Below, piece after piece: positions 11,122 to 37,574 of a DNA stretch of 41,616 nucleotides. The DNA comes from Candidatus Peribacteraceae bacterium (GTDB lineage Bacteria > Patescibacteriota > Gracilibacteria > Peribacterales > Peribacteraceae). Location: positions 1-41,616 of the forward strand of contig JBAYNS010000001.1 in NCBI GenBank assembly GCA_041678625.1, read 5' to 3'. Position 1 is the stretch's first letter, and each line of letters starts with the position of its first letter. The position numbers and the translations under genes are program-made. The notes below the pieces were generated by a model. The model did not search any database. It saw only the letters and a program-made list of their open reading frames with translations, and had not been told where the DNA came from.

Positions 11122-11230
11122 AGATTTTAAAGATCTTCTCACCATCATTGCCCGCAGCATTCGCAGGCAAGTGGAATCCCTGCGTACTCTGCCTACCGGC
11201 AGGCAGGCGGCAATGTCAGGGGACTGCAGC

Positions 11231-11315
11231 CTTCAGCTTGGAAGGCTGACATAATAGCCATTACCTGTCGGCCGTAGCTCCGCGTCCGCGGAGCGAAGGC
11301 TGATACGACGCCCGC
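11231..11315 (-). pseudogene. duplicated 5' part (positions 1-45) of tRNA-Gly(UCC) interrupted by a 40-nt palindromic element
   Basis: 11231-11263 is identical to 11077-11109 (33 nt) and 11304-11315 is identical to 11110-11121 (12 nt). They are separated by the insert at 11264-11303. No T-arm or 3' acceptor follows. Confidence 0.8.
11264..11303 (-). repeat. GC-rich palindromic element (CTTCG-hairpin-CTACGG..CAGG family)
   Basis: The minus-strand reading is TCAGCCTTCG-CTCCGCG-GAC-GCGGAG-CTACGGCCGACAGG. It matches the family seen at 28848, 33550, 33782, 36276 and 41498. Confidence 0.6.
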
Positions 11316-12954: not shown

Positions 12955-13296
12955 ATGCCTGATGACACTATCTTCCACAAAATTCTCCGAAAGGAAATTC
13001 CTGCAAATGTCGTTTATGAAGATGATGAAGTGCTCGTTTTCAAAGACATCAATCCAAAAGCTACGACACATTTGCTCTTCATCGCAAAAAAAGCGGAGAA
13101 TTTCACTCCTTCCATTGCAGATCTAACAGAAGAGACGGAGCATGTACCGTTACTACTTATTCGCAAAGCACAGCACTTCGCAAAGGACAACGGGATCGAT
13201 GGCTACCAGCTTAAGTTCCACGTTGGAAAGAGCGGGGGGCAGGAAGTGTTCTTCCTCCATCTGCATTTTCTGAGTCAGGAGACTTTAGGAAATTAG
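12955..13296 (+). CDS. HIT-family (histidine triad) nucleotide hydrolase
   Basis: N-terminus IFHKILRKEIPANVVYEDDEVLVFKDINPKATTHLL and histidine triad HLHLHFL near the C-terminus. Confidence 0.88.
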   Translation: MPDDTIFHKILRKEIPANVVYEDDEVLVFKDINPKATTHLLFIAKKAENFTPSIADLTEETEHVPLLLIRKAQHFAKDNGIDGYQLKFHVGKSGGQEVFFLHLHFLSQETLGN

Positions 13297-13558
13297 GAAC
13301 TAGAAACTAGGAGTTAGGAAGTTAGGAACTAGGAGTTAGGAAGTTAGGAACTAGGAAGTTAGCAAAAATAGGAAATCGTTGCAGTAATACCTAAGGAACC
13401 TCTGAAAAATTACCAAAATGTCATCCTGAGGCCGTTCGAAGGATAGACATTTTGGCTTCTGTACATGGTTCGAGCGACCTCACCATGACAGAAGCCAGAG
13501 TTTTTCAGAGGTTCCCTAACTCCTAACTTCCTATCCTCTATCTCCTAACTTCCTAACC
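13284..13558. repeat. nested inverted repeat: 7-8-nt TAGGA-type tandem repeats (arms) around a ~120-nt three-way-junction palindrome
   Basis: The left arm (13284-13363) consists of TTAGGAAC/TAGGAGT/TAGGAAG units and the right arm (13516-13558) is their complement. The inner stem is GGAACCTCTGAAAAA (13395-13409) pairing with TTTTTCAGAGGTTCC (13501-15). Two internal hairpins are present: CCAAAATGTC..GACATTTTGG and GGCTTCTGT..ACAGAAGCC. Confidence 0.8.
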
Positions 13559-27208: not shown

Positions 27209-28326
27209 AGCAGAGCGATGGCACTGCGAATACCTTCTTCAAAATGCGTACGGGAAAAGAGGGTAGACCGTGCCGTTAGTACATTTTTTGTATAAGTTTT
27301 TTGTTCGCATTTTTCCATTGCTTGCAGCAGAGATTCTGCAGTCGGTTCCGTAAAGAATTCCCCCGTTTCTCCTTCCACGATTGTCTCCAGTGCTCCGCCG
27401 CTGCGGTAGGCGATCACCGGCGTTCCGCACGCCATAGATTCCAGCGGAACAAGACCGAAATCCTCATCGCCCGGGAAGAGTGTTGCCGTTGCATTCGTAT
27501 ACAGTTCACGGATTTTTTCCTGCGGCTGGAATCCCAAAAATTCCACCGTCGGTCCCGCACACTTTTCCAGTTCTTTGCGTGCCGGGCCTTCCCCAATGAT
27601 TTTCAGTGGTCGCTTTCCTTTGTTGCACGCTTCAATGGCGAGTTCAATACGTTTGTAATGGACGAGGGTGGAAACAACGAGGTAGTACGTACTGGTTACT
27701 GGTTGCTGGTTGCTGGTTACTGGTTGGAGCCAGAAGTCGTCTATGGGTGGATAGATCACGTCGCTTTCCCGTCGCCAGTAGAGTTCAATTCTCCTTTGCA
27801 CTTCCTTTGATGCTGCGAGCAACATATCCGGCCGTGCGGCTGCTTCGCTATCCCAGATACGCAATTGATGGAATGTACGTTCCAGATGTCGTCGCTTCAA
27901 AGGTCCTAGCATCCCTTTCCCTGCACGATCGAGTACATCGTGCGTGCGGTCCCACAGATAACGGGCAGGGGACTGAACGTAACACAAATGCTTCGGCTTT
28001 CCATTGGTGATGATGCCGTGTGCAAAAGCGGAGGAACTGCTGATCACCAGATCATAGTCGAAGAAATCCCAGGCCTCGACTGCTTTTGGAAATGCACGCA
28101 GATACAAATGATGGTTGTAACGATAGGGATCAGGGAATAGGGAATAGGGAATAGGGAGCTTTGCAGGAATGACACGATCTGCGGCAAACCAGTCGCCAAG
28201 TTTCTCTTTGTTATAGAGCAATGTGTAGATCGGAGCCTCCGGAAACATATTCGCAAAAATCTTGAGGACGCGTTCAGCACCACCTTTCATAGTGAGGAGT
28301 TCGTGGACAAGAGCGACTTTCATCAT
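27205..28326 (-). CDS. glycosyltransferase family 4 (GT-B)
   Basis: MKVALVHE...GGAERV N-terminus and a C-terminal EX7E-type region DEDFGLVPLESMACGTPVIAYRSGGALETI. Confidence 0.85.
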   Translation of the reverse strand: MMKVALVHELLTMKGGAERVLKIFANMFPEAPIYTLLYNKEKLGDWFAADRVIPAKLPIPYSLFPDPYRYNHHLYLRAFPKAVEAWDFFDYDLVISSSSAFAHGIITNGKPKHLCYVQSPARYLWDRTHDVLDRAGKGMLGPLKRRHLERTFHQLRIWDSEAAARPDMLLAASKEVQRRIELYWRRESDVIYPPIDDFWLQPVTSNQQPVTSTYYLVVSTLVHYKRIELAIEACNKGKRPLKIIGEGPARKELEKCAGPTVEFLGFQPQEKIRELYTNATATLFPGDEDFGLVPLESMACGTPVIAYRSGGALETIVEGETGEFFTEPTAESLLQAMEKCEQKTYTKNVLTARSTLFSRTHFEEGIRSAIALL

Positions 28327-28393
28327 AAGCGATTATGCAGTACAGAGGCGATGTTGGCGAATTTACATTTGTCTTTTAGTTTTTTGGTATAGA

Positions 28394-28708
28394 ATGCTCA
28401 CTATGCAAGAAATTCCATCAGGGCAGGTGCGTGTGGTAGCACATGTTCCTCGGGAACGGTTAGTCCAACTGACACAGGAAGCGCATAAGGCAGGAGTATG
28501 TATTGAAGATTATATCAGGGGGAAGCTTGCTACTGTCTTTGCAGTGCCAGGTACAGAAATTCATGAGGTGACACTGGAGCCGCGTCCGAATCCTGTAACG
28601 AGAGCAGCACGTGACTATTTTCATCTTTGCCGTGCTCCTCATACTCGTCAGGGTGATTCTCTCGAATTGCCACATGAACCTGGAACTTTTACGGTGATTG
28701 TTGATTGA
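28394..28708 (+). CDS. hypothetical protein
   Basis: 104-aa ORF from ATG 28394. No recognised motif. Confidence 0.35.
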   Translation: MLTMQEIPSGQVRVVAHVPRERLVQLTQEAHKAGVCIEDYIRGKLATVFAVPGTEIHEVTLEPRPNPVTRAARDYFHLCRAPHTRQGDSLELPHEPGTFTVIVD

Positions 28709-28772
28709 TACAGATTACACAGGTTATCTCTGTTCCAATCCTCCAGAATTTACGTACAATGCCCTTGCGCTT

Positions 28773-28847
28773 GGGTCAGTAGCTCAGTGGTAGAGCAGAG
28801 GCCTTTTAAGCCTTTGGCCGTGGGTTCGATCCCCACCTGACCCACCA
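28773..28847 (+). tRNA. tRNA-Lys(UUU), CCA encoded
   Basis: GGGTCAG/CTGACCC acceptor, D-arm GCTC-AGTGGTA-GAGC, anticodon loop CTTTTAA, T-arm GTGGG-TTCGATC-CCCAC. Length 75 nt. Confidence 0.92.
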
Positions 28848-28886
28848 TTCGTCGCCCCGCGTACGCGGGGCTCCTCATGGCAAGCC
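28848..28886 (+). repeat. GC-rich palindromic element (family member)
   Basis: TTCGTC-GCCCCGC-GTAC-GCGGGGC-TCCTCATGGCAAGCC, with a 7-bp stem at 28854-28871. Confidence 0.55.
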
Positions 28887-28908
28887 ATTTCTGCTACGTT
28901 CATATGCT

Positions 28909-29163
28909 ATGGCTTTTTTCACATATATTCTTGAGTTAGAAAATGGCTCCTATTATGTTGGGCACACGAGTGATCTGAAACGTCGTATCAAAGAACATCA
29001 AGAAGGTCGAGCATGTTCTCATACACGAAAATATCCCATAGTACGATTATGTTGGTATGAGAAACAACCCGATCGTTTTACTGCTGCCAAGCGAGAAAAA
29101 GAGATAAAAGGTTGGCGCAGAGAAAAGAAAGAAAAACTTTGGTTGGATGTGGGCTCGTCCTGA
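28909..29163 (+). CDS. stand-alone GIY-YIG nuclease family protein (UPF0213/YhbQ-like)
   Basis: Has FTYILELENGSYYVGHTSDLKRRIKEHQEG...AAKREKEIKGWRREKK, i.e. GIY..YVG, R and E in canonical spacing. Length 84 aa. Confidence 0.85.
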   Translation: MAFFTYILELENGSYYVGHTSDLKRRIKEHQEGRACSHTRKYPIVRLCWYEKQPDRFTAAKREKEIKGWRREKKEKLWLDVGSS

Positions 29164-29176
29164 GCATAACGAAGGA

Positions 29177-29199
29177 TTCGATCCCCACCTGACCCACCA
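29177..29199 (+). repeat. direct repeat: copy of the last 23 nt of tRNA-Lys
   Basis: Perfect 23/23 identity to 28825-28847. Confidence 0.9.
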
Positions 29200-29270
29200 A
29201 TCAGGAAAATGGTTTTAGTTTAAAAAGAAATGCGAAAGTTTTCTACGATCGAATATCGTTGCATTTTCTG

Positions 29271-29837
29271 TTACTTTTCTACCTCTACTATTCGACCAGA
29301 GTCAATTGTGTAGTAATCAGATAATCCTGTAGAACGTAGCCACTTTTCCAATTCTCCCTTCTGGGGTTTTGGGCGTATGCTCTCAATTTTCTCATCCATG
29401 AATTTTAGGAATCCTGCTCCTTTGTTTTTATCAATTTCTCTCAACATTGTGAGCTTCTGCAATTCGGGGTACATCGTGTATAAGTGATTCACTTCGACCA
29501 CTGCGTGTCCATTTTCTATGGAAAGCCAAAATCGATGCTGCAAGTCAATATACCCTCTTGAGGGATGATCCTTATTTTTTGTATGAAAGCCATCAATCCA
29601 TTCTTGTAATTGATCAGCTTTTACTGCACCTGTTGACAGTTTCTTGTTTAGCCTACCCAACCTTTCCTTTATATCCTTCTCCCAATTGCTAATATCTTCT
29701 TCCGTCATCCATTGAGTATGGTGTAGTTGTTCTACAACACCTATATCATTCCATAATCGCAGTATATCCAGCTGGATGTTCTCAGGTACATTTTCAGATG
29801 CACGTTCTTTTGAGCCAAAGAAATCTAATATTCCCAT
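29271..29837 (-). CDS. hypothetical protein (AT-rich orphan)
   Basis: ORF from ATG 29837 (MGILDFFGSKE...). A hand count of 29271-29330 gives 21/60 G+C. No recognised motif. Confidence 0.5.
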   Translation of the reverse strand: MGILDFFGSKERASENVPENIQLDILRLWNDIGVVEQLHHTQWMTEEDISNWEKDIKERLGRLNKKLSTGAVKADQLQEWIDGFHTKNKDHPSRGYIDLQHRFWLSIENGHAVVEVNHLYTMYPELQKLTMLREIDKNKGAGFLKFMDEKIESIRPKPQKGELEKWLRSTGLSDYYTIDSGRIVEVEK

Positions 29838-30123
29838 AGAAAAGGTTGGTATGTGTTTATATATTTTCAGTATAGCAAAATACACCCCTTTTCGCAACAG
29901 AAATCAGAGCACATAAAATTGTTACTATTCCCTAAATATCATCATACATGCAAAATTTCAGCAGAATTCTGACTAGCATAATTCTCTTTCGTCAGGCGGA
30001 ATCCCTGTGCATGGCAAGTCCTGTATGCTATCGGAGCATCAAAACTGAACAGGGAATATGTAACCTTCACATTCCGACCCGCTACCGATTTCATCGGTTT
30101 CATTTCCTTCTATACTGTACGTC

Positions 30124-30684
30124 ATGGCTACGGTATTCATCTTTCACGGTATTCAGGGGCATCCTGAAGAAAACTGGTTTCCTTGGCTTAAAAAGAAGCT
30201 AGAGGCAGAGGGGCATCAGGTTATTGTTCCGGCATTTCCCCATGCGGACCATCCGACATTGCAGGAGTGGCTCGATCACTTTGCGCAGTACACACAGCAC
30301 ATCGCCGAAGATTCTGTGATCATTGGACACAGCTTTGGAGCAGCTTTTGCATTACAGATATTGCAGAATCTTCCCCATCCTGTGCGAGCCAGTTTTTTCA
30401 TCGCAGCAGTCTACGACGTTATGGATAATGAGTTTGATAATCGTATGACGACATTCGTTGAAAATGGTTTTGCCTGGGAAACTATCAGAAAGCGATCAGG
30501 TCACGCGCATGTCATACACTCTGACAATGATCCATACATTGCTTTGGCAAAGGCACAGCACCTTGCGGAGATTCTGCGGGCGCCTTTAACTTTGATAAAA
30601 GGAGGAGGTCACTTTAATACGATGGCAGGATATTCCACATTCGATGCACTTTTCCAGAGTGTGCGGGAAGAGCTCAGCGAATAA
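30124..30684 (+). CDS. alpha/beta serine hydrolase, YdeN/RBBP9-like
   Basis: 186 aa with VFIFHG N-terminus, nucleophile elbow GHSFG, then SDNDPY and GGGHF, giving a Ser-Asp-His order typical of this small hydrolase family. Confidence 0.7.
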   Translation: MATVFIFHGIQGHPEENWFPWLKKKLEAEGHQVIVPAFPHADHPTLQEWLDHFAQYTQHIAEDSVIIGHSFGAAFALQILQNLPHPVRASFFIAAVYDVMDNEFDNRMTTFVENGFAWETIRKRSGHAHVIHSDNDPYIALAKAQHLAEILRAPLTLIKGGGHFNTMAGYSTFDALFQSVREELSE

Positions 30685-32148
30685 TTACGGATTTATGTAC
30701 TGCTCGCGCAGTTGTTGATAGAGCTCTCTCCCTTTTGGTGTGGGGTACTTTCCGTCTACACATGCCATGCATAAGTGTTTAGACGGCTTGTTGAGAGCTT
30801 GTGAAACAGCGCCCTTTGGTAGGAATTTTATTGATGTCACCTCAAGGCGCTGCGCCATTGCTTCCAAAATCTCTGGGCCCAGCGTGTCGCCGTGCAAGGG
30901 TTGTCCATTGGTGAATGCCGGGGCAAAGAGCTCCTTAATCGTTTGGATATCAATACCGTAGGGGCAAATGCCGAAGATGGGTGGGCACCCAAGACGCACG
31001 TGAATTTCGCGCGGCTGTGCCGCGCGGACATCCTGCAGCAGCCGCATGAGTGTTCTGGCGCGCACGATACTATCTTCCCAAATGATGGCGACTTTCCCCC
31101 GGAATTGCTCTGGGTGCACAAGGTGCTTTGCTTCTTTTTGCTCCAGCATAAACTCTCTTCCTCTGTGCTGCGGATTGCGTTCAATACCGCGATAGTTTGT
31201 GCGTAATCCCAGTGTCTGCGCGTAAGCGTTTCCTCCCGCTTTGGCGGATTCCGGAACGGGGAACACGATGTGATCAAAGCTCTTTTCCACAAACTCCGGA
31301 TCGATCTGTGCCATGAGCTTGCCTGTACGATGGCGAAAGTTCCGCACAGACTCTCCATCCAGTTTGGATTCTACGAATGCAAAGTACACCCACTCAAAAA
31401 AGCAGTGCGACAACTTCGGATCCTTGATGAGTTCCCTGAGCGACCACTGATTTCCTTCTGCATGAATGTGCCCGCCCGGGGGAACATCTTTGATGTAGGC
31501 ACCTTCCCACATCTGTCGTATCGGCCAGTCCTCCGATGCAACAACCATGAGGTCGTCCACAACAGAGTAGAGGAGCGGATGCTTGCCGGAGGCATCCCGG
31601 TACGCATCCAATGATGCCAAGTGTCCTTTATCTGCCGCCTGCAGTATGGCTACGTTGAATGCTCCATCGAATAGTTCTTCCATCCTCAGAAAAGTAGCTG
31701 CTGTACAGCGTTGGTGTACATCAGCGCTGATTTCTTCTAGCGCTACACGCAGCAGCAATTGCGTGTCTGTGATTTCCTCCGGCAGTTTTAAATCAGAGAA
31801 GTTGGCAAGCGTACCGTTGAATGCAACCGCTATTTTTCTCTGGGGATCCAGCAGTGGTTGATAGCATTCTCCGGGAGAGGTGCTGTAGCGCGTGTGGCCC
31901 ACGGCTGCGCGCGATGGATCCAGAAATAATCCCTGTGGTTCCGGAAAAACCCGTTGTGCCTGTCCTGGTCCTGCAATGACATCCAGTGTACGTCTACGCG
32001 TGTCATCCTTTGCCCGTGCGATACCTGCCGATTGCTGGCCACGGTGACCGAGTTCCCTAATACCGTGTACAACGTTTGGCATGAGCATACGGCCTCCGGC
32101 GAGGTCATAAACCGCAAAGAGTCCGCAATTGTGATTAAGCTCAGGCAT
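30685..32148 (-). CDS. purF: amidophosphoribosyltransferase (PurF-like, Ntn-glutaminase + PRTase, Cys ligands for an Fe-S cluster)
   Basis: Propeptide then Cys (MPELNHN-CGLFAVY), followed by GHRGQQSAGIA, VGHTRYST, AFNGTLAN, CFFEWVYFA, PRPP loop IIWEDSIVRART, CPPIFGICPYGID and CMACVDGKYP. Confidence 0.8.
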   Translation of the reverse strand: MPELNHNCGLFAVYDLAGGRMLMPNVVHGIRELGHRGQQSAGIARAKDDTRRRTLDVIAGPGQAQRVFPEPQGLFLDPSRAAVGHTRYSTSPGECYQPLLDPQRKIAVAFNGTLANFSDLKLPEEITDTQLLLRVALEEISADVHQRCTAATFLRMEELFDGAFNVAILQAADKGHLASLDAYRDASGKHPLLYSVVDDLMVVASEDWPIRQMWEGAYIKDVPPGGHIHAEGNQWSLRELIKDPKLSHCFFEWVYFAFVESKLDGESVRNFRHRTGKLMAQIDPEFVEKSFDHIVFPVPESAKAGGNAYAQTLGLRTNYRGIERNPQHRGREFMLEQKEAKHLVHPEQFRGKVAIIWEDSIVRARTLMRLLQDVRAAQPREIHVRLGCPPIFGICPYGIDIQTIKELFAPAFTNGQPLHGDTLGPEILEAMAQRLEVTSIKFLPKGAVSQALNKPSKHLCMACVDGKYPTPKGRELYQQLREQYINP

Positions 32149-32195
32149 GAGGAGTTATTCTCCTGCATTCAGGAGATATTGGTCTAGTAGATTCA

Positions 32196-32223
32196 TTGAC
32201 ATTATTTAAATCAATAGTACAGT
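32196..32223 (+). promoter_or_regulatory. candidate sigma70-type promoter: TTGACA-16 nt-TACAGT
   Basis: A perfect -35 at 32196-32201 and a -10 at 32218-32223. The ATG of the next ORF is at 32233, so the predicted leader is very short. Confidence 0.4.
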
Positions 32224-32232
32224 GAGAGTATT

Positions 32233-32607
32233 ATGGTAGCTCGTGTAGAAGATCACAGTGGACCTCGTGTCCATTCGACACCGGTAACCAGGGCAGAGAT
32301 TGAGGACGGCAACGTACCTGCTTGCACTCCTCTAGAAGCGGGAATTTCCATGCTTACCAGTAGTGCCGTTGAGCGGTTGCGAGAGTTGATTGCAGGTGGA
32401 GATGCCAATGTGGCACTTCCTGAGGACGAGCAGCAGCGTGATGAAAATGTGCATGGTAGGGCAGATGTTGTCCGGATTGCTGGTGTTCCTCATGCTGTGG
32501 CGCACCTCAAGCGCACACTTCAGTTTGCAATTGCAGCGCGGAATCGTATGCCTGATGTAGCAGCGCAAATTGATGCTGCGGAGTTAAGTGCGGATGTAGC
32601 TATCTAG
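32233..32607 (+). CDS. hypothetical protein
   Basis: 124-aa ORF downstream of the candidate promoter. No recognised motif. Confidence 0.35.
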   Translation: MVARVEDHSGPRVHSTPVTRAEIEDGNVPACTPLEAGISMLTSSAVERLRELIAGGDANVALPEDEQQRDENVHGRADVVRIAGVPHAVAHLKRTLQFAIAARNRMPDVAAQIDAAELSADVAI

Positions 32608-32667
32608 GAAAACGGTTCGGGATAATGTGATATGCATCGTGTATGAAGTGCGTATGATATTGCTGTT

Positions 32668-33432
32668 ATGATCGACAGTCATTGCCATTTGGCTGACCAG
32701 AAGTTTGCGCAGGATCGTGATGCGGTCATTAACCGTGCTGTTATTGCAGGAGTTGATCGTATGGTTACGATCGCTGACTCTCTTAGAGAAGGGGAACAGT
32801 GTCTTGCAATTGCGGAGAAGTTTCCTCAGGTGTTTTGTACCGTCGGTGTGCATCCTCATGGGGCTAGGATTTGGGTTAGGGCTAGGGATGAGCAATTATT
32901 GAGACAGTACTTTTCTCATGAGAAGGTTGTTGGTATCGGTGAGATCGGACTCGATTACCACTACGACCACTCTCCGCGCGATGTGCAGTGCGATGTCTTC
33001 CGCGTACAGATGGAACTTGCAAGAGAGCTTTCTATGCCGGCTGTTGTGCATTGCCGAGAAGCGATTGAAGACATCAAAAAGATTATCCGCAGCGTGCAGC
33101 CAGCGAAGTTGGTTCTGCACTGCTGTACGGAACGCTGGGAGGATGTGGAAGATTTGGTGAACGATGGGTATTTACTCGGATTCACCGGTATTGCCACATA
33201 TCCACATGCAGAGGAAATCCGGCGCACCATTGAGCATTGTCCGCTTGAACACATGCTCATAGAGACGGATGCACCGTATCTGGCGCCTGTCCCTCATCGT
33301 GGAAAGCGCAATGAACCGGCATTTGTGGTGGAAGTGGCCAAGCTCGTTGCCGATATTAAAGGCGTACCCTTCAAGGAAGTTGATCGCACAACAACACAGA
33401 ATACGGTGGCGTTTTACAGTCTTCCTTCGTAA
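32668..33432 (+). CDS. tatD: TatD-family metal-dependent hydrolase (YcfH-like)
   Basis: IDSHCHL, GVHPH, GEIGLDYHY, VVHCR, HC and ETDAPYLAP(VP)HRGKRNEP. Confidence 0.9.
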   Translation: MIDSHCHLADQKFAQDRDAVINRAVIAGVDRMVTIADSLREGEQCLAIAEKFPQVFCTVGVHPHGARIWVRARDEQLLRQYFSHEKVVGIGEIGLDYHYDHSPRDVQCDVFRVQMELARELSMPAVVHCREAIEDIKKIIRSVQPAKLVLHCCTERWEDVEDLVNDGYLLGFTGIATYPHAEEIRRTIEHCPLEHMLIETDAPYLAPVPHRGKRNEPAFVVEVAKLVADIKGVPFKEVDRTTTQNTVAFYSLPS

Positions 33433-33528
33433 GATTCTGTTTGTGCCCTCGTCCGCCTACGCCAAGGCTTTGGCGGACGAGTCACTCAGCTTATAATTCA
33501 TTCTCACAAGATTCGCTTCGTATTACTT

Positions 33529-33549
33529 GCCCCCGTAGGCTAATGGATA
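33529..33549 (+). pseudogene. tRNA 5' fragment (acceptor 5' strand + D-arm start), followed by a palindromic element
   Basis: In GCCCCCG-TA-GGCT-AATGGATA, the acceptor strand is complementary (with G.U) to CGGGGGT in the 3' fragment at 33744-33780. Confidence 0.55.
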
Positions 33550-33591
33550 CCCGCCTTCGTCCCGCATATGCGGGACTATGGGCGGGCAGGG
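33550..33591 (+). repeat. GC-rich palindromic element (family member)
   Basis: CCCGCC-TTC-GTCCCGC-ATAT-GCGGGAC-TATG-GGCGGG-CAGGG, with nested stems. Confidence 0.6.
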
Positions 33592-33642
33592 ACTGTTCGG
33601 CTTCCGGCCTGTCCACCGAAGCTTTCCTGTTTATTCTCATAT

Positions 33643-33719
33643 ACACCTGTAGCTCAATTGGATAGAGCGTCAGCTTCCGGAGCTGAAGGTTGTGGGTTCG
33701 AGCCCCGCCAGGTGTACCA
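33643..33719 (+). tRNA. tRNA-Arg(CCG), CCA encoded
   Basis: ACACCTG/CAGGTGT acceptor, GCTC-AATTGGATA-GAGC D-arm, anticodon loop TTCCGGA, T-arm GTGGG-TTCGAGC-CCCGC. Length 77 nt. Confidence 0.88.
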
Positions 33720-33743
33720 TTCAATTGATTGGCGAAGGTGGAA

Positions 33744-33780
33744 GCTGAAGATACAGGTTCAATTCCTGTCGGGGGTACCA
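33744..33780 (+). pseudogene. tRNA 3' fragment (anticodon-stem 3' strand to CCA), Gly-like
   Basis: GCTGA-AGAT-ACAGG-TTCAATT-CCTGT-CGGGGGT-A-CCA. The T-arm is perfect, but no matching 5' anticodon-stem strand lies upstream. Confidence 0.6.
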
Positions 33781-33781
33781 T

Positions 33782-33816
33782 CCGGCTTCGTCCCGCGTCC
33801 GCGGGACTACGCCGTG
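33782..33816 (+). repeat. GC-rich palindromic element (family member)
   Basis: CCGGCTTCG-TCCCGC-GTCC-GCGGGA-CTACGCCGTG. The stem is at 33790-33807. Confidence 0.6.
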
Positions 33817-33897
33817 ATTATTACTTCACATGCCGCCGGATGCCACGGCGAAATTTGCGGCAAAGCGGAGAACAAAGCCGGGCATTCGACTCGATTT

Positions 33898-34629
33898 TCA
33901 CCGTATGTCCCGATATTGCCTGGTTACCGGACGACGCAGAATTACTTCTGAAACAAAGTTCACGGCATACAGAAAACTTGTACGCCAAAAGCCTTCATCC
34001 GATGTCATGCGGCGGCCCGAACTCTTGGTTATAAATTTCAGGTTAAATTGCACGCGGCCGATTTTGTGCAGGCGTCGTGCGATATTCGTATCTTCCCCGT
34101 AGAAAGAGATGGATGTATCAAAGCCGCCAATGCGGAGCAGAGCACTGCGTTTGGCGACGAAGTTCCCGCCAATGACCATGTAGCGCGTACAGCAGTACAT
34201 GGGAAAAGCAATGAACATCCAGAAGAGTTTTACGAGTATGTTTTGCCATCGTGCCAGATCAAAGCAGTAGTACGGTCCGCTCAGGCAGACAAGGTTAGAG
34301 TCTTTGGCGAAGTGTGCGTTGATCATCTCAAACCATCCTTCCGGAACGTGCGTATCCGCATCCACAAAGGCAAGCAGATCTCCTGTTGCACTCTCAAGTG
34401 CCTTCTGGCGCGCATACGTAACTCCTTTACGTGATTCATCCACCACGGTGACGCCGGGGAATTGTTCGGCGATACTGTGTGTTCGATCCGTGCTTGCATT
34501 ATTGATCACGAGCACTTCACACACATTCGGCGTCTTATACATCAGGCAGTGCTCCAAACATGCTGCGATGTAGTCTTCCTCGTTATGTGCCGGAATGGCA
34601 ACGGTAATGGTCATAACCGGGTGAGGCAT
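33898..34629 (-). CDS. glycosyltransferase family 2
   Basis: VAIPAHNEEDYI, VINNASTDRT and the FVDADT (DxD) motif, GT-A fold signatures. An alternative start lies at 34614. Confidence 0.85.
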   Translation of the reverse strand: MPHPVMTITVAIPAHNEEDYIAACLEHCLMYKTPNVCEVLVINNASTDRTHSIAEQFPGVTVVDESRKGVTYARQKALESATGDLLAFVDADTHVPEGWFEMINAHFAKDSNLVCLSGPYYCFDLARWQNILVKLFWMFIAFPMYCCTRYMVIGGNFVAKRSALLRIGGFDTSISFYGEDTNIARRLHKIGRVQFNLKFITKSSGRRMTSDEGFWRTSFLYAVNFVSEVILRRPVTRQYRDIR

Positions 34630-34683
34630 GCAAAATATTCGTGTCTAGAATAGACGCATTCGATCTGTGGCGACAGTGTTACA

Positions 34684-34719
34684 GTCAATGGAGCGGGATA
34701 GTGGAGTGTATTCGGAACT
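34684..34719. repeat. 36-nt direct repeat, copy A (contains TGGAGCGGGATA, identical to the 3' end of tRNA-Gly(CCC) on this strand)
   Basis: GTCAATGGAGCGGGATAGTGGAGTGTATTCGGAACT matches 35546-35581 at 35/36 positions. Confidence 0.85.
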
Positions 34720-34757
34720 AGTTCGAACCTATAGTTAGCAGTAATTCAATGAAATAA

Positions 34758-35513
34758 TCATGCACCAGCTTCTTTCTTGTTACCCTCTCTCAAAGTCCGA
34801 AGATCAGTCATAAATGCCTCTGGAGAATATTCGGGACTTGGCAAAGGAGAAGATATGTATGCTGTTTTATACTCTTCGTATCCTATGAGATAGTTGCCTC
34901 TTCGCAATGCTTTCCCCGTAGGGATGCCCGTTCGAATTATGCCATCTAAAGATGGACAGGGTTGCTGAAGAATCTGAGGTAAATAGAGATGATCCCGAAA
35001 TGTTCCATTTTTGTTCACAGACCAATTTCGTATTGCATTTGCCAACTCTTCGTCTCCGTTGTAATTCAAGCAAAAAGCTATAACTAGTCCTGTTCTTGTT
35101 TTGGTGGATGCAACGACATCATTAAGAGCATTCGCCGTTTCTTTCGTGTAATCTGGTAATCCACCCAATGGTTTTCCCAAATGAATCAGCCTTACATTTT
35201 TGTTCTCTGCTTTATTGATCCAATTTTCTAAGAGATTTCTGAAGAATGTATGAAAAACATCAAACAATACGCGTAAATTCATCTCTGTTCGTTGGGACAT
35301 ATTTTTGTCTGACAAACCCCAAAATGCCAAAATACCTCGCATTTCTCCAATTGCAGTATTCATCAATTGTTCGACAGAATTTGCCCCCATTGAATACCCA
35401 TCACGTAATTGATCAACAGTAAGATCTGCCTTGCTAGCAACACCATATTTTTCCTTTGCCCATGTGCGATCACCGTCGCAAATAATGCCTATGAATTCAG
35501 ATTCATCATGCAC
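34758..35513 (-). CDS. divergent cis-prenyltransferase (UppS-like isoprenyl transferase) in an AT-richer cassette
   Basis: By eye, collinear with E. coli UppS: IGIICDGDRTWAKEKYG (compare IIMDGNGRWAKK), FWGLSDKNMSQR (compare FSSENWNR), NVRLIHLG, LNYNGDEEL (compare NYGGRWDI) and IIRTG...LRRGNYLIGYEE (compare [21 protein letters not shown]). GTG start. A hand count of 34801-34860 gives 24/60 G+C. Confidence 0.65.
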   Translation of the reverse strand: MHDESEFIGIICDGDRTWAKEKYGVASKADLTVDQLRDGYSMGANSVEQLMNTAIGEMRGILAFWGLSDKNMSQRTEMNLRVLFDVFHTFFRNLLENWINKAENKNVRLIHLGKPLGGLPDYTKETANALNDVVASTKTRTGLVIAFCLNYNGDEELANAIRNWSVNKNGTFRDHLYLPQILQQPCPSLDGIIRTGIPTGKALRRGNYLIGYEEYKTAYISSPLPSPEYSPEAFMTDLRTLREGNKKEAGA

Positions 35514-35545
35514 AGTAAATAAATATGATATTCATATGGATTTCT

Positions 35546-35581
35546 GTCAATAGAGCGGGATAGTGGAGTGTATTCGGAACT
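35546..35581. repeat. 36-nt direct repeat, copy B
   Basis: GTCAATAGAGCGGGATAGTGGAGTGTATTCGGAACT, with 1 mismatch to copy A. Confidence 0.85.
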
Positions 35582-35593
35582 GAGATGGAGTAT

Positions 35594-35837
35594 TACTGCG
35601 GAGCAATATGACGAAAACGAATGGAAGTCCCCGACCCGGACTTCAAGTACTTCTCAAATTGATTGCCTTCGTTTTATTGCGGAATCCACAAAACCATTCT
35701 ATATCCCATGGACGAAGATTCTTGGTCGCAATCACTGATCCTTCGTTATGCTCTTTGAGCCGCACGGATATATCAGAAGCATGGCCAACATATTGTTTAC
35801 CTTTCTGGTTGCGTAAGATGTATACGTAATGCCACAT
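35594..35837 (-). pseudogene. stand-alone GIY-YIG nuclease gene, apparently frameshifted near the C-terminus
   Basis: The ORF at 35643..35837 reads MWHYVYILRNQKGKQYVGHASDISVRLKEHNEG...RPW...KAINLRST*. Shifting frame at the AATTT run (about 35655) gives ...FEKYLKSGSGTSIRFRHIAPQ*, which matches the usual C-terminal (E/R)KYLKSGSG motif of this family. The corrected stop is at 35594-35596. Confidence 0.6.
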
Positions 35838-35956
35838 AAGTGATTGATTCTATAGCAATGTTTATCGGCCTGCCAACCGAAGCGCAGCGAATCTGATCTT
35901 GAATAGCTATCCTGCGCACTTCGTGCTTCGGATGGCAACCTACGCTGCGCGTAGGT

Positions 35957-36030
35957 TGGAGCGGGATACGAGAATCGAACTCGCGTCTTAAGCTTGGGAA
36001 GCTTACATACTACCACTGTACTAATCCCGC
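35957..36030 (-). tRNA. tRNA-Gly(CCC), CCA encoded
   Basis: GCGGGAT/ATCCCGC acceptor, anticodon stem TAAGC/GCTTA, loop TTCCCAA, T-arm GCGAG-TTCGATT-CTCGT. Length 74 nt. Confidence 0.9.
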
Positions 36031-36136
36031 AGAAAAAAAGATCGATTGCCCGGCTTCGCTGCGCTACGCCGTGGCACCCTTGTTATCCAACACTGCGACA
36101 CCGCGGCGAAGTTCGCCGTAGGCGAACGGAGACGGG

Positions 36137-36213
36137 TGGAGCGGATGACGAGATTCGAACTCGCGACCTTCTCCATGGCAAGGAGACGCTCTAGCCAACT
36201 GAGCTACATCCGC
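36137..36213 (-). tRNA. tRNA-Gly(GCC), CCA encoded
   Basis: GCGGATG/CATCCGC acceptor, GCTC-AGTTGGCTA-GAGC D-arm, anticodon loop TTGCCAT, T-arm GCGAG-TTCGAAT-CTCGT. Length 77 nt. Confidence 0.9.
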
Positions 36214-36266
36214 ATTAGAGAGAAAAGAACGAAACTACTATTCTTTCATTCGCTCCTTCGGAGCGA

Positions 36267-36330
36267 CTAGCCAACCCTCCTTCGCCCCGCGAATGCGGGG
36301 CTTCGGCAGGGCAGGCAGGGCTACATCCGC
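36267..36330 (-). pseudogene. 5' fragment of tRNA-Gly(GCC) (positions 1-11 and 15-23) split by a 44-nt palindromic element in the D-loop
   Basis: The minus-strand reading is GCGGATGTAGC-[CCTGCCTGCCCTGCCGAAGCCCCGCATTCGCGGGGCGAAGGAGG]-GTTGGCTAG. The element at 36276-36319 is a family member in inverted orientation. Confidence 0.7.
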
Positions 36331-36549
36331 ATAATGAGAAAATGGACAATAGTGCACTCCTGTGTTCAAAAGGAGTATCCAGCCTGCTGTTTCCAGCATA
36401 GTAGGCTACATGCCATCTTCAATGACGTTAAAGAGCGCGTGAATGCTACGGAGAATCTGTGCCGGATGCAAGAATCTCAGCCCTCTTCCAGGGAGGAAAA
36501 TGGCTATTTTGGGCTCGAAATACACCCGATTTTGCAGTATAATAATGTG

Positions 36550-36981
36550 ATGGCTGTACAAAGATTCCTTGCGGCATTCATTCTGGCACTCCTAGTAGGA
36601 GTGGCAGTTCATATGCCTGTTCATGCAGCAGACGACCAAAATGCAGCTAGCAACAAACATGTTGTTCAGCAGGTTGTGAAAACTATCCCGCTCATTCAAC
36701 CTCTTAATGACACTACAACGCAGTTGCCGGTTGGAACGTCTCCGGCAGGAACCTTTATTGCGTATTTTAACATGGGATCTTCGTGGCTCATTAGTGTCGC
36801 CGTGGGTATTGCTACTCTCTGGGTTCTTGTCTGCGGGGGCGCCATTGTGGTGGTGGGGCATAACGACGGCCAGCGCAGTGAATGGATGGGCAATATGAAG
36901 CGGGCGATCGGAGGACTCATTGCTCTGGTTTTCGCCGGGTCCATTCTGCGGTTCCTCAATTCCGCATTCTTCACTTCATGA
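36550..36981 (+). CDS. T4SS pilin-like (TrbC/VirB2-like) protein 1
   Basis: ATG at 36550 and a signal peptide (AAFILALLVGVAVHMPVHAA). Two C-terminal TM helices flank GHNDGQRSEWMGNMKRAI. Confidence 0.55.
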   Translation: MAVQRFLAAFILALLVGVAVHMPVHAADDQNAASNKHVVQQVVKTIPLIQPLNDTTTQLPVGTSPAGTFIAYFNMGSSWLISVAVGIATLWVLVCGGAIVVVGHNDGQRSEWMGNMKRAIGGLIALVFAGSILRFLNSAFFTS

Positions 36982-37574
36982 TGCGCCGTATCATTACTAC
37001 TCTCACGGCTTTCTCTGCCTCCGTACTTTCTGTGCCTGCGGCTCTGGCGGCTAGGCCACAGGTGGATCCCTGTGCGTACATCGGAGGGTGCACCTACGAT
37101 GCTAACTGGGTCAGCCCGCTTATCGGCAAGCTTGCTGGTTTGGGTATGACTATTGCCGCAGGTACGGCTGTACTCTTTGTGGTTGTTGGCGGTGCGCAGA
37201 TGGTTATCAGCATGGGGGAGGAAGGCACAATCACCAAAGGAAAAATGTCCATGGTCTATGCGCTTATCGGTTTGGGGTTGGCGATGCTGTCTCAGACTAT
37301 TGTGGCATACGTCGCCACAGAATTTTCCGGTCTCTTTATGAGTACTGATCCCATTTTCACCTTCATACGATCCGCAATTACGGTGATTGTTGGTCTCTTC
37401 AATGTCGTCTTTGCGCTGATGGTCGTCTATGCGGGATATCGCATGACCTATGCGCGGGGAGAAGCGGAGAACTTCAATAAGGCAAAGAGTATCCTGATTT
37501 GGTCTGTTGTCGGTGCGATCGGTGTTAATGTTGCTGCTGCTCTGACCAAAGCTGTTATTAATCTGCCTCTATGA
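36978..37574 (+). CDS. T4SS pilin-like protein 2 (apparently duplicated pilin module)
   Basis: The ATG overlaps the previous stop (ATGA). There is a signal peptide (...SVPAALAA) and four TM helices with two loop motifs, ISMGEEGTITKGKMSM and YARGEAENFNKAKSIL. Confidence 0.55.
   Translation: MMRRIITTLTAFSASVLSVPAALAARPQVDPCAYIGGCTYDANWVSPLIGKLAGLGMTIAAGTAVLFVVVGGAQMVISMGEEGTITKGKMSMVYALIGLGLAMLSQTIVAYVATEFSGLFMSTDPIFTFIRSAITVIVGLFNVVFALMVVYAGYRMTYARGEAENFNKAKSILIWSVVGAIGVNVAAALTKAVINLPL

Follow-up and report, generated by a model that had tools for sequence, protein, structure and literature searches.

A frameshifted GIY-YIG nuclease gene between tRNA-Gly(CCC) and copies of its 3' end in Candidatus Peribacteraceae

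How did a small, broken nuclease gene come to lie between an intact tRNA gene and displaced copies of the end of that same tRNA? The locus that raises this question is tRNA-Gly(CCC) in a 41,616-bp contig from a metagenome-assembled genome of Candidatus Peribacteraceae (Peregrinibacteria, candidate phyla radiation, CPR). The entire contig is the window of this analysis. It is ordinary chromosome, with genes for ribosomal proteins L1 and S1, ClpB, RuvB, MetRS, Dus, TatD, an ABC exporter and type IV pilins, and it has five tRNA genes (ARAGORN). Profile searches found no integrase, recombinase or transposase among the gene products of the 41.6-kb window. In this study, we found that the locus belongs to a class of cassettes that lie immediately 3' of an intact tRNA or transfer-messenger RNA (tmRNA) gene, in the orientation of that gene, and whose only conserved gene encodes a minimal GIY-YIG nuclease. 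The locus is best read as a decayed, cargo-carrying member of a group of selfish nuclease cassettes that also have features of tRNA-integrating islets.

The tRNA-Gly(CCC) locus and its nuclease gene

From the tRNA outwards, the locus consists of the following features.

35957..36030, minus strand: tRNA-Gly(CCC), intact (ARAGORN; Rfam tRNA model, 68.2 bits); its 3' end ..GTATCCCGCTCCA anchors the cassette
35838..35956, minus strand: conserved left spacer of the Gly type, 119 nt (alignment to L081, two copies, and to L082, L084, L083 and L003)
35593..35837, minus strand: pseudogene of a GIY-YIG (UPF0213/Slx1-like) nuclease (Pfam PF01541, 62.6 bits for the restored protein)
35541..35581, minus strand: proximal boundary repeat (direct repeat 1, DR1), made of a 19-nt tail AGTTCCGAATACACTCCAC, a tRNA-end copy TATCCCGCTCTA (35562-35551, 11/12) and TTGACAGAAA
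34758..35513, minus strand: cargo gene for a divergent cis-prenyltransferase (UppS-like), 251 aa, 756 bp (Pfam Prenyltransf, E=5e-18)
34679..34719, minus strand: distal boundary repeat (DR2), made of the same 19-nt tail, a 12/12 tRNA-end copy (34700-34689) and TTGACTGTAA

L-numbers here and below are the labels of relative loci used in the comparisons.

An earlier reading made from the sequence only had placed a GIY-YIG open reading frame (ORF) 119 nt downstream of tRNA-Gly(CCC) on the same strand, and the distance is exact, counted from the tRNA 3' end (CCA) to the ORF start at 35837. The early stop that it reported was also found. Frame 1 runs from 35837 to 35643 on the minus strand and ends after 64 codons as ..KAINLRST*. 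The next frame reads QFEKYLKSGSGTSIRFRHIAPQ* and supplies the C-terminal 22 residues. A shift of frame restores a family-typical C-terminus, as had been proposed, with the TAA stop at 35595-35593 and not with an end at 35594. With its 81 aa, the restored protein can be aligned gap-free to 29 intact homologues, of which most also have 81 aa, at 51-84% identity. The lesion is a 1-nt deletion in codon 60, within 35653-35666 (GCAATC-AATTTGAG); the window reads GCA ATC -AA TTT GAG, and the relatives hold a complete codon 60.

The deletion sits just upstream of the codon for Glu62, an invariant residue that is missing from the 64-aa product. Since the deletion lies ahead of this residue, the truncated product is predicted to be unable to act as a nuclease. 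A relative in L099, among the closest, carries an independent 1-nt deletion. The Logan assembly of SRR6484787 (L163) is 100% identical to the window over 4228 nt, the frameshift and both repeats included; it may share reads with the window contig, and the match excludes an assembler artefact and not a systematic read error. By these alignments, the frameshift is judged to be a real lesion in a real gene. The proposed decay of the nuclease agrees with the restored length, which matches that of the intact homologues, and with the loss of Glu62. These results indicate that the nuclease of the Gly cassette is in a decay phase, its predicted catalytic C-terminus removed by a single-nucleotide deletion. 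A programmed frameshift is unlikely, since C AAT TTG is no canonical slippery heptamer and the intact relatives have one more base.

The spacer between the tRNA and the nuclease is structured. A hairpin abuts the CCA of tRNA-Gly(CCC) (35956-35938), and a long-range helix of 13 bp is predicted between 35937-35925 and 35883-35871. Across the aligned Gly-type spacers, compensatory changes occur in 5 of the 18 predicted pairs, along with G-U pairs. The CCA-adjacent hairpin keeps its pairing while its sequence varies (ACCTACGC/GCGTAGGT, ACCTGC/GCAGGT, GCCTCC/GGAGGC, ACCTTCGC/GCGAAGGT). A promoter scan found a promoter-like site, TTGGCA-18-TAGAAT, at 35876-35847, just ahead of the nuclease ATG. This site is conserved as TTGGCA-18-TA(G/T/C)A(A/C)T, with the same -35/-10 spacing in L164, L167 and L172, and the 3' strand of the long-range helix overlaps it a few bases before the ATG. 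Spacers of 112-119 nt were also found in L081, L086, L088, L168 and L172. A permissive Rfam scan of 28000-37000 returned tRNAs only, the spacers and repeats matching no family. An intron-like arrangement, with the ORF looped out of the T-loop and the tRNA completed by the second 3' end, was considered and rejected; the upstream tRNA is complete, no group I intron model matches, and the conserved promoter-like site lies inside the spacer. Bacteria are also not known to possess the splicing endonuclease that this would require.

The restored nuclease frame is followed after 11 nt, and not 12 nt as first given, by DR1. The earlier reading had described a 36-nt repeat at 35581-35546 with a sister copy at 34684-34719. 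The repeat is real and extends to 41 nt (35541-35581 and 34679-34719), with 38/41 identity, that is, three differing positions; its 36-nt core is identical at 35/36. DR2 holds TATCCCGCTCCA, which is identical at 12/12 to the terminus of tRNA-Gly(CCC), as had been noticed, and DR1 matches at 11/12. When one mismatch was allowed, the tRNA-Gly(CCC) 12-mer had 4 matches in the window against 0.12 expected, and 0/100 shuffles reached 4. The same identity with the local tRNA end is present at the homologous loci L168 (13/13), L081 (13/13 and 10/10) and L172 (10/10). Beyond DR2, at the GT2 gene, the chromosomal guanine-cytosine (GC) composition returns. By this layout, the repeat pair in the window is more than the end of the cassette and is read as two successive right boundaries (19-nt tail, 12-nt tRNA end, 10 nt), so that the right boundary is duplicated on either side of a captured UppS-like gene.

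The TTGACA of DR1 forms a -35 box for the cargo gene in the promoter scan (TTGACA-17-CATATT, 35550-35522). The cargo gene has a GC of 0.40 against 0.49 for the contig. Its product scores below the TIGR00055 equivalog cut-off (43.5 vs 109.55 bits) and is assigned by these profiles to the cis-prenyltransferase fold family, not to bona fide UppS. Only 3 relatives were found among 5.8e9 proteins. A role for the UppS-like gene as typical cargo was rejected on this count and on the position of the closest relative (L161), which lies about 2 kb from tRNA-Gly(TCC) with no nuclease. The same L161 contig carries a repeat-bounded cassette, also without a nuclease, at 1861-2798. There, a TTGACT -35 box adjoins the end of tRNA-Gly(TCC) and precedes a short-chain-dehydrogenase-like ORF, behind which lies the conserved tail GGTTGTAATAGATTCCAGTA+ACCCGCTCCA.

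Recurrence of the cassettes at tRNA gene ends

A second cassette, of another subfamily, lies in the same window behind tRNA-Lys(TTT).

28773..29199, plus strand: sister cassette of the other subfamily (repeat search, Pfam; exact copies of the locus in L173)
28773-28847, plus strand: tRNA-Lys(TTT) (ARAGORN)
28848-28888, plus strand: left end of the Lys cassette, with hairpin (sequence)
28909-29163, plus strand: intact GIY-YIG ORF of the Lys cassette, 84 aa (Pfam)
29152-29175, plus strand: right end of the Lys cassette (sequence)
29176-29199, plus strand: 24-nt copy of the tRNA-Lys 3' end (repeat search)
29203..30021, no strand given: low-GC cargo behind the Lys cassette (GC 0.37; 785 nt between the copy and the second left end; composition)
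29271-29897, minus strand: 208-aa ORF in this cargo (no family match in Pfam, NCBIfam, PADLOC or PHROGs)
29987-30021, behind the cargo: degenerate second left end TTTCGTCAGGCGG..CATGGCAAGTCC

The gap of 13 nt first given for this cassette, for comparison with that of the Gly locus, measured 10-12 nt, depending on where the copy is taken to begin.

Both nucleases are minimal domains without accessory modules (81 and 84 aa). The Lys-type protein scores 61.6 bits against PF01541, close to the restored Gly-type protein, the cut-off being 22.6 bits. A comparison of both GIY-YIG proteins with UPF0213 had been proposed, and their best structural matches are indeed UPF0213 BH0048 (1zg2; E=1.1e-5 and 1.1e-11), EF2693 (1ywl) and SLX1 (7wme), with E values from 1e-5 to 1e-11. 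Y6, Y16, R26, H30 and E62/E63 are invariant in the alignments of both subfamilies. The set is complete in the Lys-type gene and incomplete in the Gly-type gene of the window as it stands, Glu62 being lost. The two nucleases share 34% identity and fall into separate subfamilies, the KREKEIKGWRREKK type for the Lys cassette and the FEKYLKSGSG type for the Gly cassette, whose end sequences differ. At 34% identity, they are therefore two lineages of one element type and not copies. The suggestion that the Gly locus is a decaying second copy of the same element thus holds for the element type, by the shared layout, and fails for the copy.

Recurrence of the Lys type was counted in a genome collection, over 17 assessable Peregrinibacteria loci and 61 loci of other phyla. 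A same-strand tRNA lies 36-274 nt upstream in 16/17 of the Peregrinibacteria loci (Pro with three anticodons, Leu with three, Tyr, Met and Arg). In the other phyla, 13/61 loci are tRNA-linked, including tRNA-Ser in Ignavibacteria and Zixibacteria and one tmRNA. An exact copy of 13-18 nt of the locus's own tRNA 3' terminus was found 12-72 nt past the stop codon in 14/16 loci, and the remaining two have a tRNA-end copy with 1-2 mismatches. The repeat is 17-18 nt long in 13 of the 16. The elements share one order, in which the CCA is followed by TTCGTCG, a GC hairpin of variable sequence and CTCCTCATGGCAAGCCAT, and then by an ORF ending in ..SSLP* (AGCTTGCCCTGA). On the right side, GGAGCGAAGCGACGAAGG precedes a tRNA copy that starts from GTCC in the T-loop. 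The ends are inverted; in L018, 16 nt are 94% complementary and 12 nt are 92% complementary, the latter including the ACCA of the tRNA.

The left-end motif CTCATGGCAAGCC is limited to element left ends, always in the orientation of the ORF (15 loci). It occurs once in the window, with one further 2-mismatch match at the level expected by chance. A generic tRNA trailer was ruled out as an explanation of the left end on this basis. Lys-type left ends also occur in tandem, as 3-5 copies of 33-54-nt units with CTCATGGCAAGCC between the tRNA and the nuclease ORF, in L013 (2778-3000), L008 (2727-3000) and L001 (1-111). Their arrangement suggests repeated break-and-repair or slippage there. Pro-TGG, Leu-TAG, Arg-CCG and Leu-CAA host Lys-type nucleases that are 80-83% identical, and each of these loci repeats its own tRNA end perfectly. 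Because the tRNA targets vary and each has a local copy, the repeat is taken from the local gene. Judged from these targets, the specificity seems directed at something that tRNA and tmRNA genes have in common (T-arm, acceptor 3' strand, CCA).

Recurrence of the Gly type was counted over 73 assessable metagenomic loci, where tRNA-linked means a same-strand tRNA or tmRNA no more than 400 nt upstream. This holds for 48/73. The closest relatives of the window gene all lie behind tRNA-Gly (TCC, GCC or CCC) with spacers of 104-137 nt, and the next clade sits behind tRNA-Ala. The right side consists of the ORF, often one cargo ORF on the opposite strand, a short tail and 10-13 nt of the local tRNA end. 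These copies match the local acceptor sequence in the window, L168, L081, L172 and L161; the Gly(CCC) loci have ATCCCGC and the Gly(TCC) loci ACCCGC. The synteny of L168 is that of the window (pilin, tRNA-Gly GCC, tRNA-Gly CCC, nuclease), with AGTTCCTCATAAGCTCCA+GTATCCCGCTCCA after a 108-aa ORF. In L172 and L081, GG(C/T)TGTAAT..TTCAG(G)T+ACCCGCTCCA follows a deaminase-like ORF and a NYN ORF, respectively. Further on, L081 has a spacer that lacks an ORF, and beyond it two 32-nt repeats of tail and tRNA end enclose a 90-aa ORF, giving three boundaries; this pair has the same geometry as the repeat pair in the window. Thus, when the cassette ends were compared in relatives, the repeat of the tRNA 3' end recurred at the homologous position (L168, L081, L172). 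The layout is far more general than two loci in one window.

These comparisons define the class further. The cassettes are closed by a copy of the local tRNA 3' end, which runs from the T-loop to CCA in the Lys type and comprises the acceptor strand and CCA in the Gly type. The element ends are conserved within each subfamily and rich in hairpins.

The cassettes also occur in arrays. In L008 and L014, full elements are preceded by remnants without an ORF (right end plus copy). L018 has a second GIY-YIG gene after the copy, and L003 has a Gly-type spacer there. An identical second left end lies behind the copy in L004 and L010. The elements of L083 and L164 are later array members, because they are preceded by a tail plus copy and not by a full tRNA. 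L002 and L003 are 98% identical through the element, carry different inserts directly after the CCA of the copy (one insert measures 631 nt and has a 186-aa ORF, the other is a solo spacer of 122 nt) and then converge. Genes carried downstream in relatives encode, among others, NYN, a deaminase-like protein, Phd/YoeB, ParE, patatin and an acetyltransferase. The GC of both islets in the window is 0.37-0.43, whereas the surrounding sequence has about 0.50. L084 and L168 share the gene order of the window on the tRNA side but not beyond the element. The content behind the tRNA thus varies among relatives, between L002 and L003 and between the window and L084 plus L168; these comparisons recovered no empty nuclease site. 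Searches of the window with PADLOC (defence) and PHROGs (phage families) gave marginal matches only.

A possible mechanism and its alternatives

We infer mobility and mechanism from these sequence comparisons. Our preferred account, which we hold to be probable with some reserve, is that the locus is an islet on tRNA-Gly(CCC) built by a selfish, integrase-less cassette that targets tRNA gene ends through a nuclease break and host repair. The nuclease would cut the tRNA gene in the T-arm or 3' region, or would cut the excised element within a tRNA-like core. Host recombination or repair would then copy or integrate the element after the break. The duplicated 3' end would preserve the essential tRNA, and the displaced 3' copy would be both a homology arm and a reusable landing site. 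If each tRNA-end copy has this landing-site role, tandem elements, remnants and boundary-flanked cargo would follow from it. Two variants fit the data. In the first, the cassette would home from a filled allele, with the complete tRNA as its left and the displaced 3' end as its right homology arm. The second would start from an element in circularised or excised form, which would integrate, its joined ends forming inverted arms around a tRNA-like core; a cut in the core would stimulate integration, and the core would be duplicated as in ends-in recombination. After fixation, the nuclease would be free to decay, as may have happened in the window and in L099. Decay after fixation is the classical life cycle of homing endonucleases.

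A close known parallel is SegB of phage T4, a GIY-YIG homing endonuclease whose 27-bp site includes the T-psi-C stem-loop motif conserved in tRNA genes and which drives the inheritance of itself and the neighbouring tRNA genes (PMC2330249). Its breaks, with homologous recombination, lead to local tandem (segmental) duplications (PMC13096335). SegB of T4 and T6 resembles the cassettes as a free-standing GIY-YIG nuclease gene amid tRNA genes. However, it is a larger phage gene of the homing-endonuclease clade, whereas the cassettes are chromosomal, bacterial and encode Slx1-like domains of 81-84 aa. In addition, no bracketing duplication of the tRNA 3' end, conserved structured ends or cargo arrays are reported for SegB. 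The closest sequence relatives are the UPF0213/Slx1-like standalone proteins (BH0048, EF2693), which share the minimal domain and the conserved Tyr, Tyr, Arg, His and Glu, but for which no link to tRNA gene ends or mobility is described (PMC1564403).

Several observations weigh against the selfish-cassette account. An empty site for the nuclease gene was not recovered, as exact-protein look-ups of the flanking genes gave identical arrangements (L163, L173) or nothing. Three syntenic genomes keep the nuclease at tRNA-Gly(CCC), with 60-77% protein identity, a pattern that long vertical residence would explain as well. A recognisable 3' copy is kept in only about one fifth of the tRNA-linked loci of the wider Gly-type subfamily. 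Simple homing alone leaves the duplication at a new tRNA unexplained, and it does not explain the repeats of about 65 nt in L004 and L010, which comprise the tRNA end and the left end and reach about 45 nt past the tRNA. Known homing endonucleases have a DNA-binding domain, but the cassette proteins of 81-84 aa are too short for such a second domain. They score 19-24 bits against TIGR01453 (group I intron endonuclease), below the cut-off of 56, and so fall outside the homing-endonuclease clade by this profile. Finally, the Slx1-like clade is regarded as an ancient, vertically inherited housekeeping lineage of unknown function (PMC1564403).

Among the alternatives, a transposon-like insertion fares best, and we consider it unlikely. 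Here an element with inverted ends would enter at staggered nicks made by the Slx1-like nuclease in the T-loop and at the tRNA 3' end, and the repeat would be a true target-site duplication. The inverted Lys-type ends abut the repeat on both sides, the repeat length is near-constant in the Lys type, related nucleases stand at different tRNAs with a perfect local repeat at each, and the ends are rich in hairpins in keeping with a structure-specific protein family (PMC1564403). However, GIY-YIG enzymes hydrolyse DNA and are not known for strand transfer. No transposase (DDE, HUH, serine or tyrosine) was found within the unit, where the GIY-YIG domain is the only ORF. Terminal-inverted-repeat transposons combine inverted ends with a target duplication of fixed length; Lys-type elements have inverted ends and repeats of 17-18 nt in 13 of 16 loci, and no terminal inverted repeats were seen in Gly-type elements, whose repeats have 10-13 nt. 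Repeat length varies by subfamily and locus (10-13, 13, 17-18 and 24 nt) and in L004 and L010 the repeat extends well past the tRNA. Furthermore, conserved degenerate tails with a tRNA-like segment (GGTTGTAATA..TTCAGGT+ACCCGCTCCA) occur in L081, L083, L161 and L172. These tails suggest that the elements carry tRNA-like sequence and do not only generate it.

Slightly less credible still are ordinary tRNA islets moved by a tyrosine integrase that is encoded elsewhere or lost, with the GIY-YIG gene as frequent cargo or accessory. A tRNA 3'-end position, an intact tRNA and a distal direct repeat are hallmarks of integrase-type islands. The cassettes have all of these at tRNA and tmRNA genes, with repeats that run from the T-loop or 3' end, and they further share tandem accretion, toxin-antitoxin cargo and atypical GC with integrase-type islands and prophages. 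The joined Lys-type ends would also give a core with inverted arms, similar to a recombination site. In the Tsy transposon, which has two tyrosine recombinases and comM as its target, a small GIY-YIG nuclease is a dispensable helper that raises integration efficiency (PMC10293859). Tsy is thus alike in encoding such a nuclease in a site-specifically integrating element, but its nuclease is dispensable, whereas that of the cassettes is the only conserved gene. Against a trans-acting integrase, the window has no recombinase, and no recombinase family recurs in the 3 kb behind 75 tRNA-linked loci, where 117 ORFs of 150 aa or more were surveyed for recurrent families, a search in which an isolated single match might not show. 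The repeat-bounded unit is often just 350-400 bp with the nuclease as its sole content (units range over 0.35-1.3 kb). The integrase of such islands is usually tRNA-proximal, but here it is the minimal nuclease that is the one constant gene, always tRNA-proximal and on the same strand. The frequent switching of target tRNAs among near-identical nucleases would also be awkward for core-dependent site-specific recombination.

That no mobile element is involved appears improbable, a little more so than a trans-acting integrase. The GIY-YIG gene would then be a host gene tied to tRNA or tmRNA genes by co-expression or by function, for example in RNA metabolism or nucleic-acid repair, the tRNA fragments debris of local duplication, and the frameshift an error or a tolerated loss. 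The retention of the gene at tRNA-Gly(CCC) across syntenic genomes, the strong conservation of the protein and other tRNA fragments near window tRNAs without a nuclease are in line with this, and no Gly-type relatives were found in IMG/VR viral contigs, a result on which a viral origin was also rejected. The Slx1-like clade is held to be vertical, and one Slx1-like fusion to a tRNA methyltransferase hints at a role in RNA metabolism (PMC1564403). However, two subfamilies lie no more than 7 kb apart in this window, and the cassettes stand at many tRNA identities (Pro, Leu, Tyr, Met, Arg, Lys, Ser, Gly, Ala, His, Glu and others) and at tmRNA, with perfect repeats that are particular to the tRNA of each locus. 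Copies in tandem or without an ORF, foreign GC, varying downstream cargo and recurrent pseudogenes also speak against a host gene, and the frameshift is present in the second assembly as well. Chance and artefact, with a coincidental 12-mer and an assembly error, would fit the shortness of the 12-nt match, but are hardly credible given the excess of matches over shuffled sequence, the same feature at the homologous position in L168, L081 and L172, and the identical second assembly.

A broader proposal is offered tentatively and is less probable than the selfish-cassette account of the locus. Slx1-like GIY-YIG nucleases may define widespread, undescribed, integrase-less mobile cassettes at the T-arm and 3' ends of tRNA genes, and tRNA ends in CPR and other bacteria may grow into integron-like capture arrays. 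The target would be common to all tRNA and tmRNA genes, and duplication of the 3' end would restore the gene and offer the next landing site. The arrays would then consist of nuclease, remnant and cargo cassettes, with a nuclease and host repair in place of a recombinase. In openly accessible full texts, we came across no account of chromosomal UPF0213 cassettes that flank tRNA genes and carry tRNA-end repeats. If the proposal is true, the cassettes would be a new route for DNA into tRNA genes, which are classic integration hot spots, with a nuclease of about 80 residues as the sole encoded protein. The large and uncharacterised UPF0213/Slx1-like family would thereby gain a biological role, and the tRNA fragments, hairpin repeats and variable low-GC genes at the tRNA loci of streamlined CPR genomes would be accounted for. 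The system is compact and testable, the question being whether one small nuclease and a tRNA-like repeat suffice for gene-preserving, site-specific insertion. For annotation, the element ends and tRNA-end repeats would permit islets, captured genes and pseudogenes to be delimited automatically.

Other tRNA fragments and repeats in the window

GC-rich palindromic hairpins (..CTTCG(T/C)CCCGCG-nnn-CGCGGG(A/G)CT..) adjoin the tRNA genes of the contig at 11264-11295, 28841-28872, 33546-33577, 33777-33808 and 36271-36302. Some of them have no nuclease gene attached. At 11122-11300 on the minus strand, upstream of tRNA-Gly(TCC), the first 54 nt or so of this tRNA are duplicated without the T-arm and the acceptor 3' strand. 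The duplicate is broken in the D-loop by a 39-nt GC-rich hairpin (cagccttcgctccgcggacgcggagctacggccgacagg), and the displaced 5' part is the mirror image of the displaced 3' ends. A shorter duplicate lies at 36214-36330, also on the minus strand. About 100 nt ahead of tRNA-Gly(GCC), the initial 11 nt of this gene (GCGGATGTAGC) recur, and a GC hairpin of the same family comes after them.

Behind tRNA-Arg(CCG), at 33741-33785 on the plus strand, CGAAGG lies 20 nt past the gene. Next come the 3' third of another tRNA (..GGTTCAATTCCTGTCGGGGGTACCA) and a GC hairpin. This fragment is conserved in the syntenic L084 and looks like the right end of a lost Lys-type element. The order in L084 is TatD, tRNA-Arg, tRNA-Gly GCC, tRNA-Gly CCC, GIY-YIG, pilins and MetRS. 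Compared with L084, the tRNA-Gly/nuclease segment of the window (about 33790-36330) is inverted and has the extra GT2 and UppS-like genes. The breakpoints of the inversion coincide with debris of hairpins and tRNA fragments.

The intergenic stretch 13285-13557, by the S1 protein gene, has tandem repeats of 22-29 nt of the TTAGGAA/CTAGGAA type and a pair of 43-nt inverted arms, which are 84% complementary and lie 159 nt apart.

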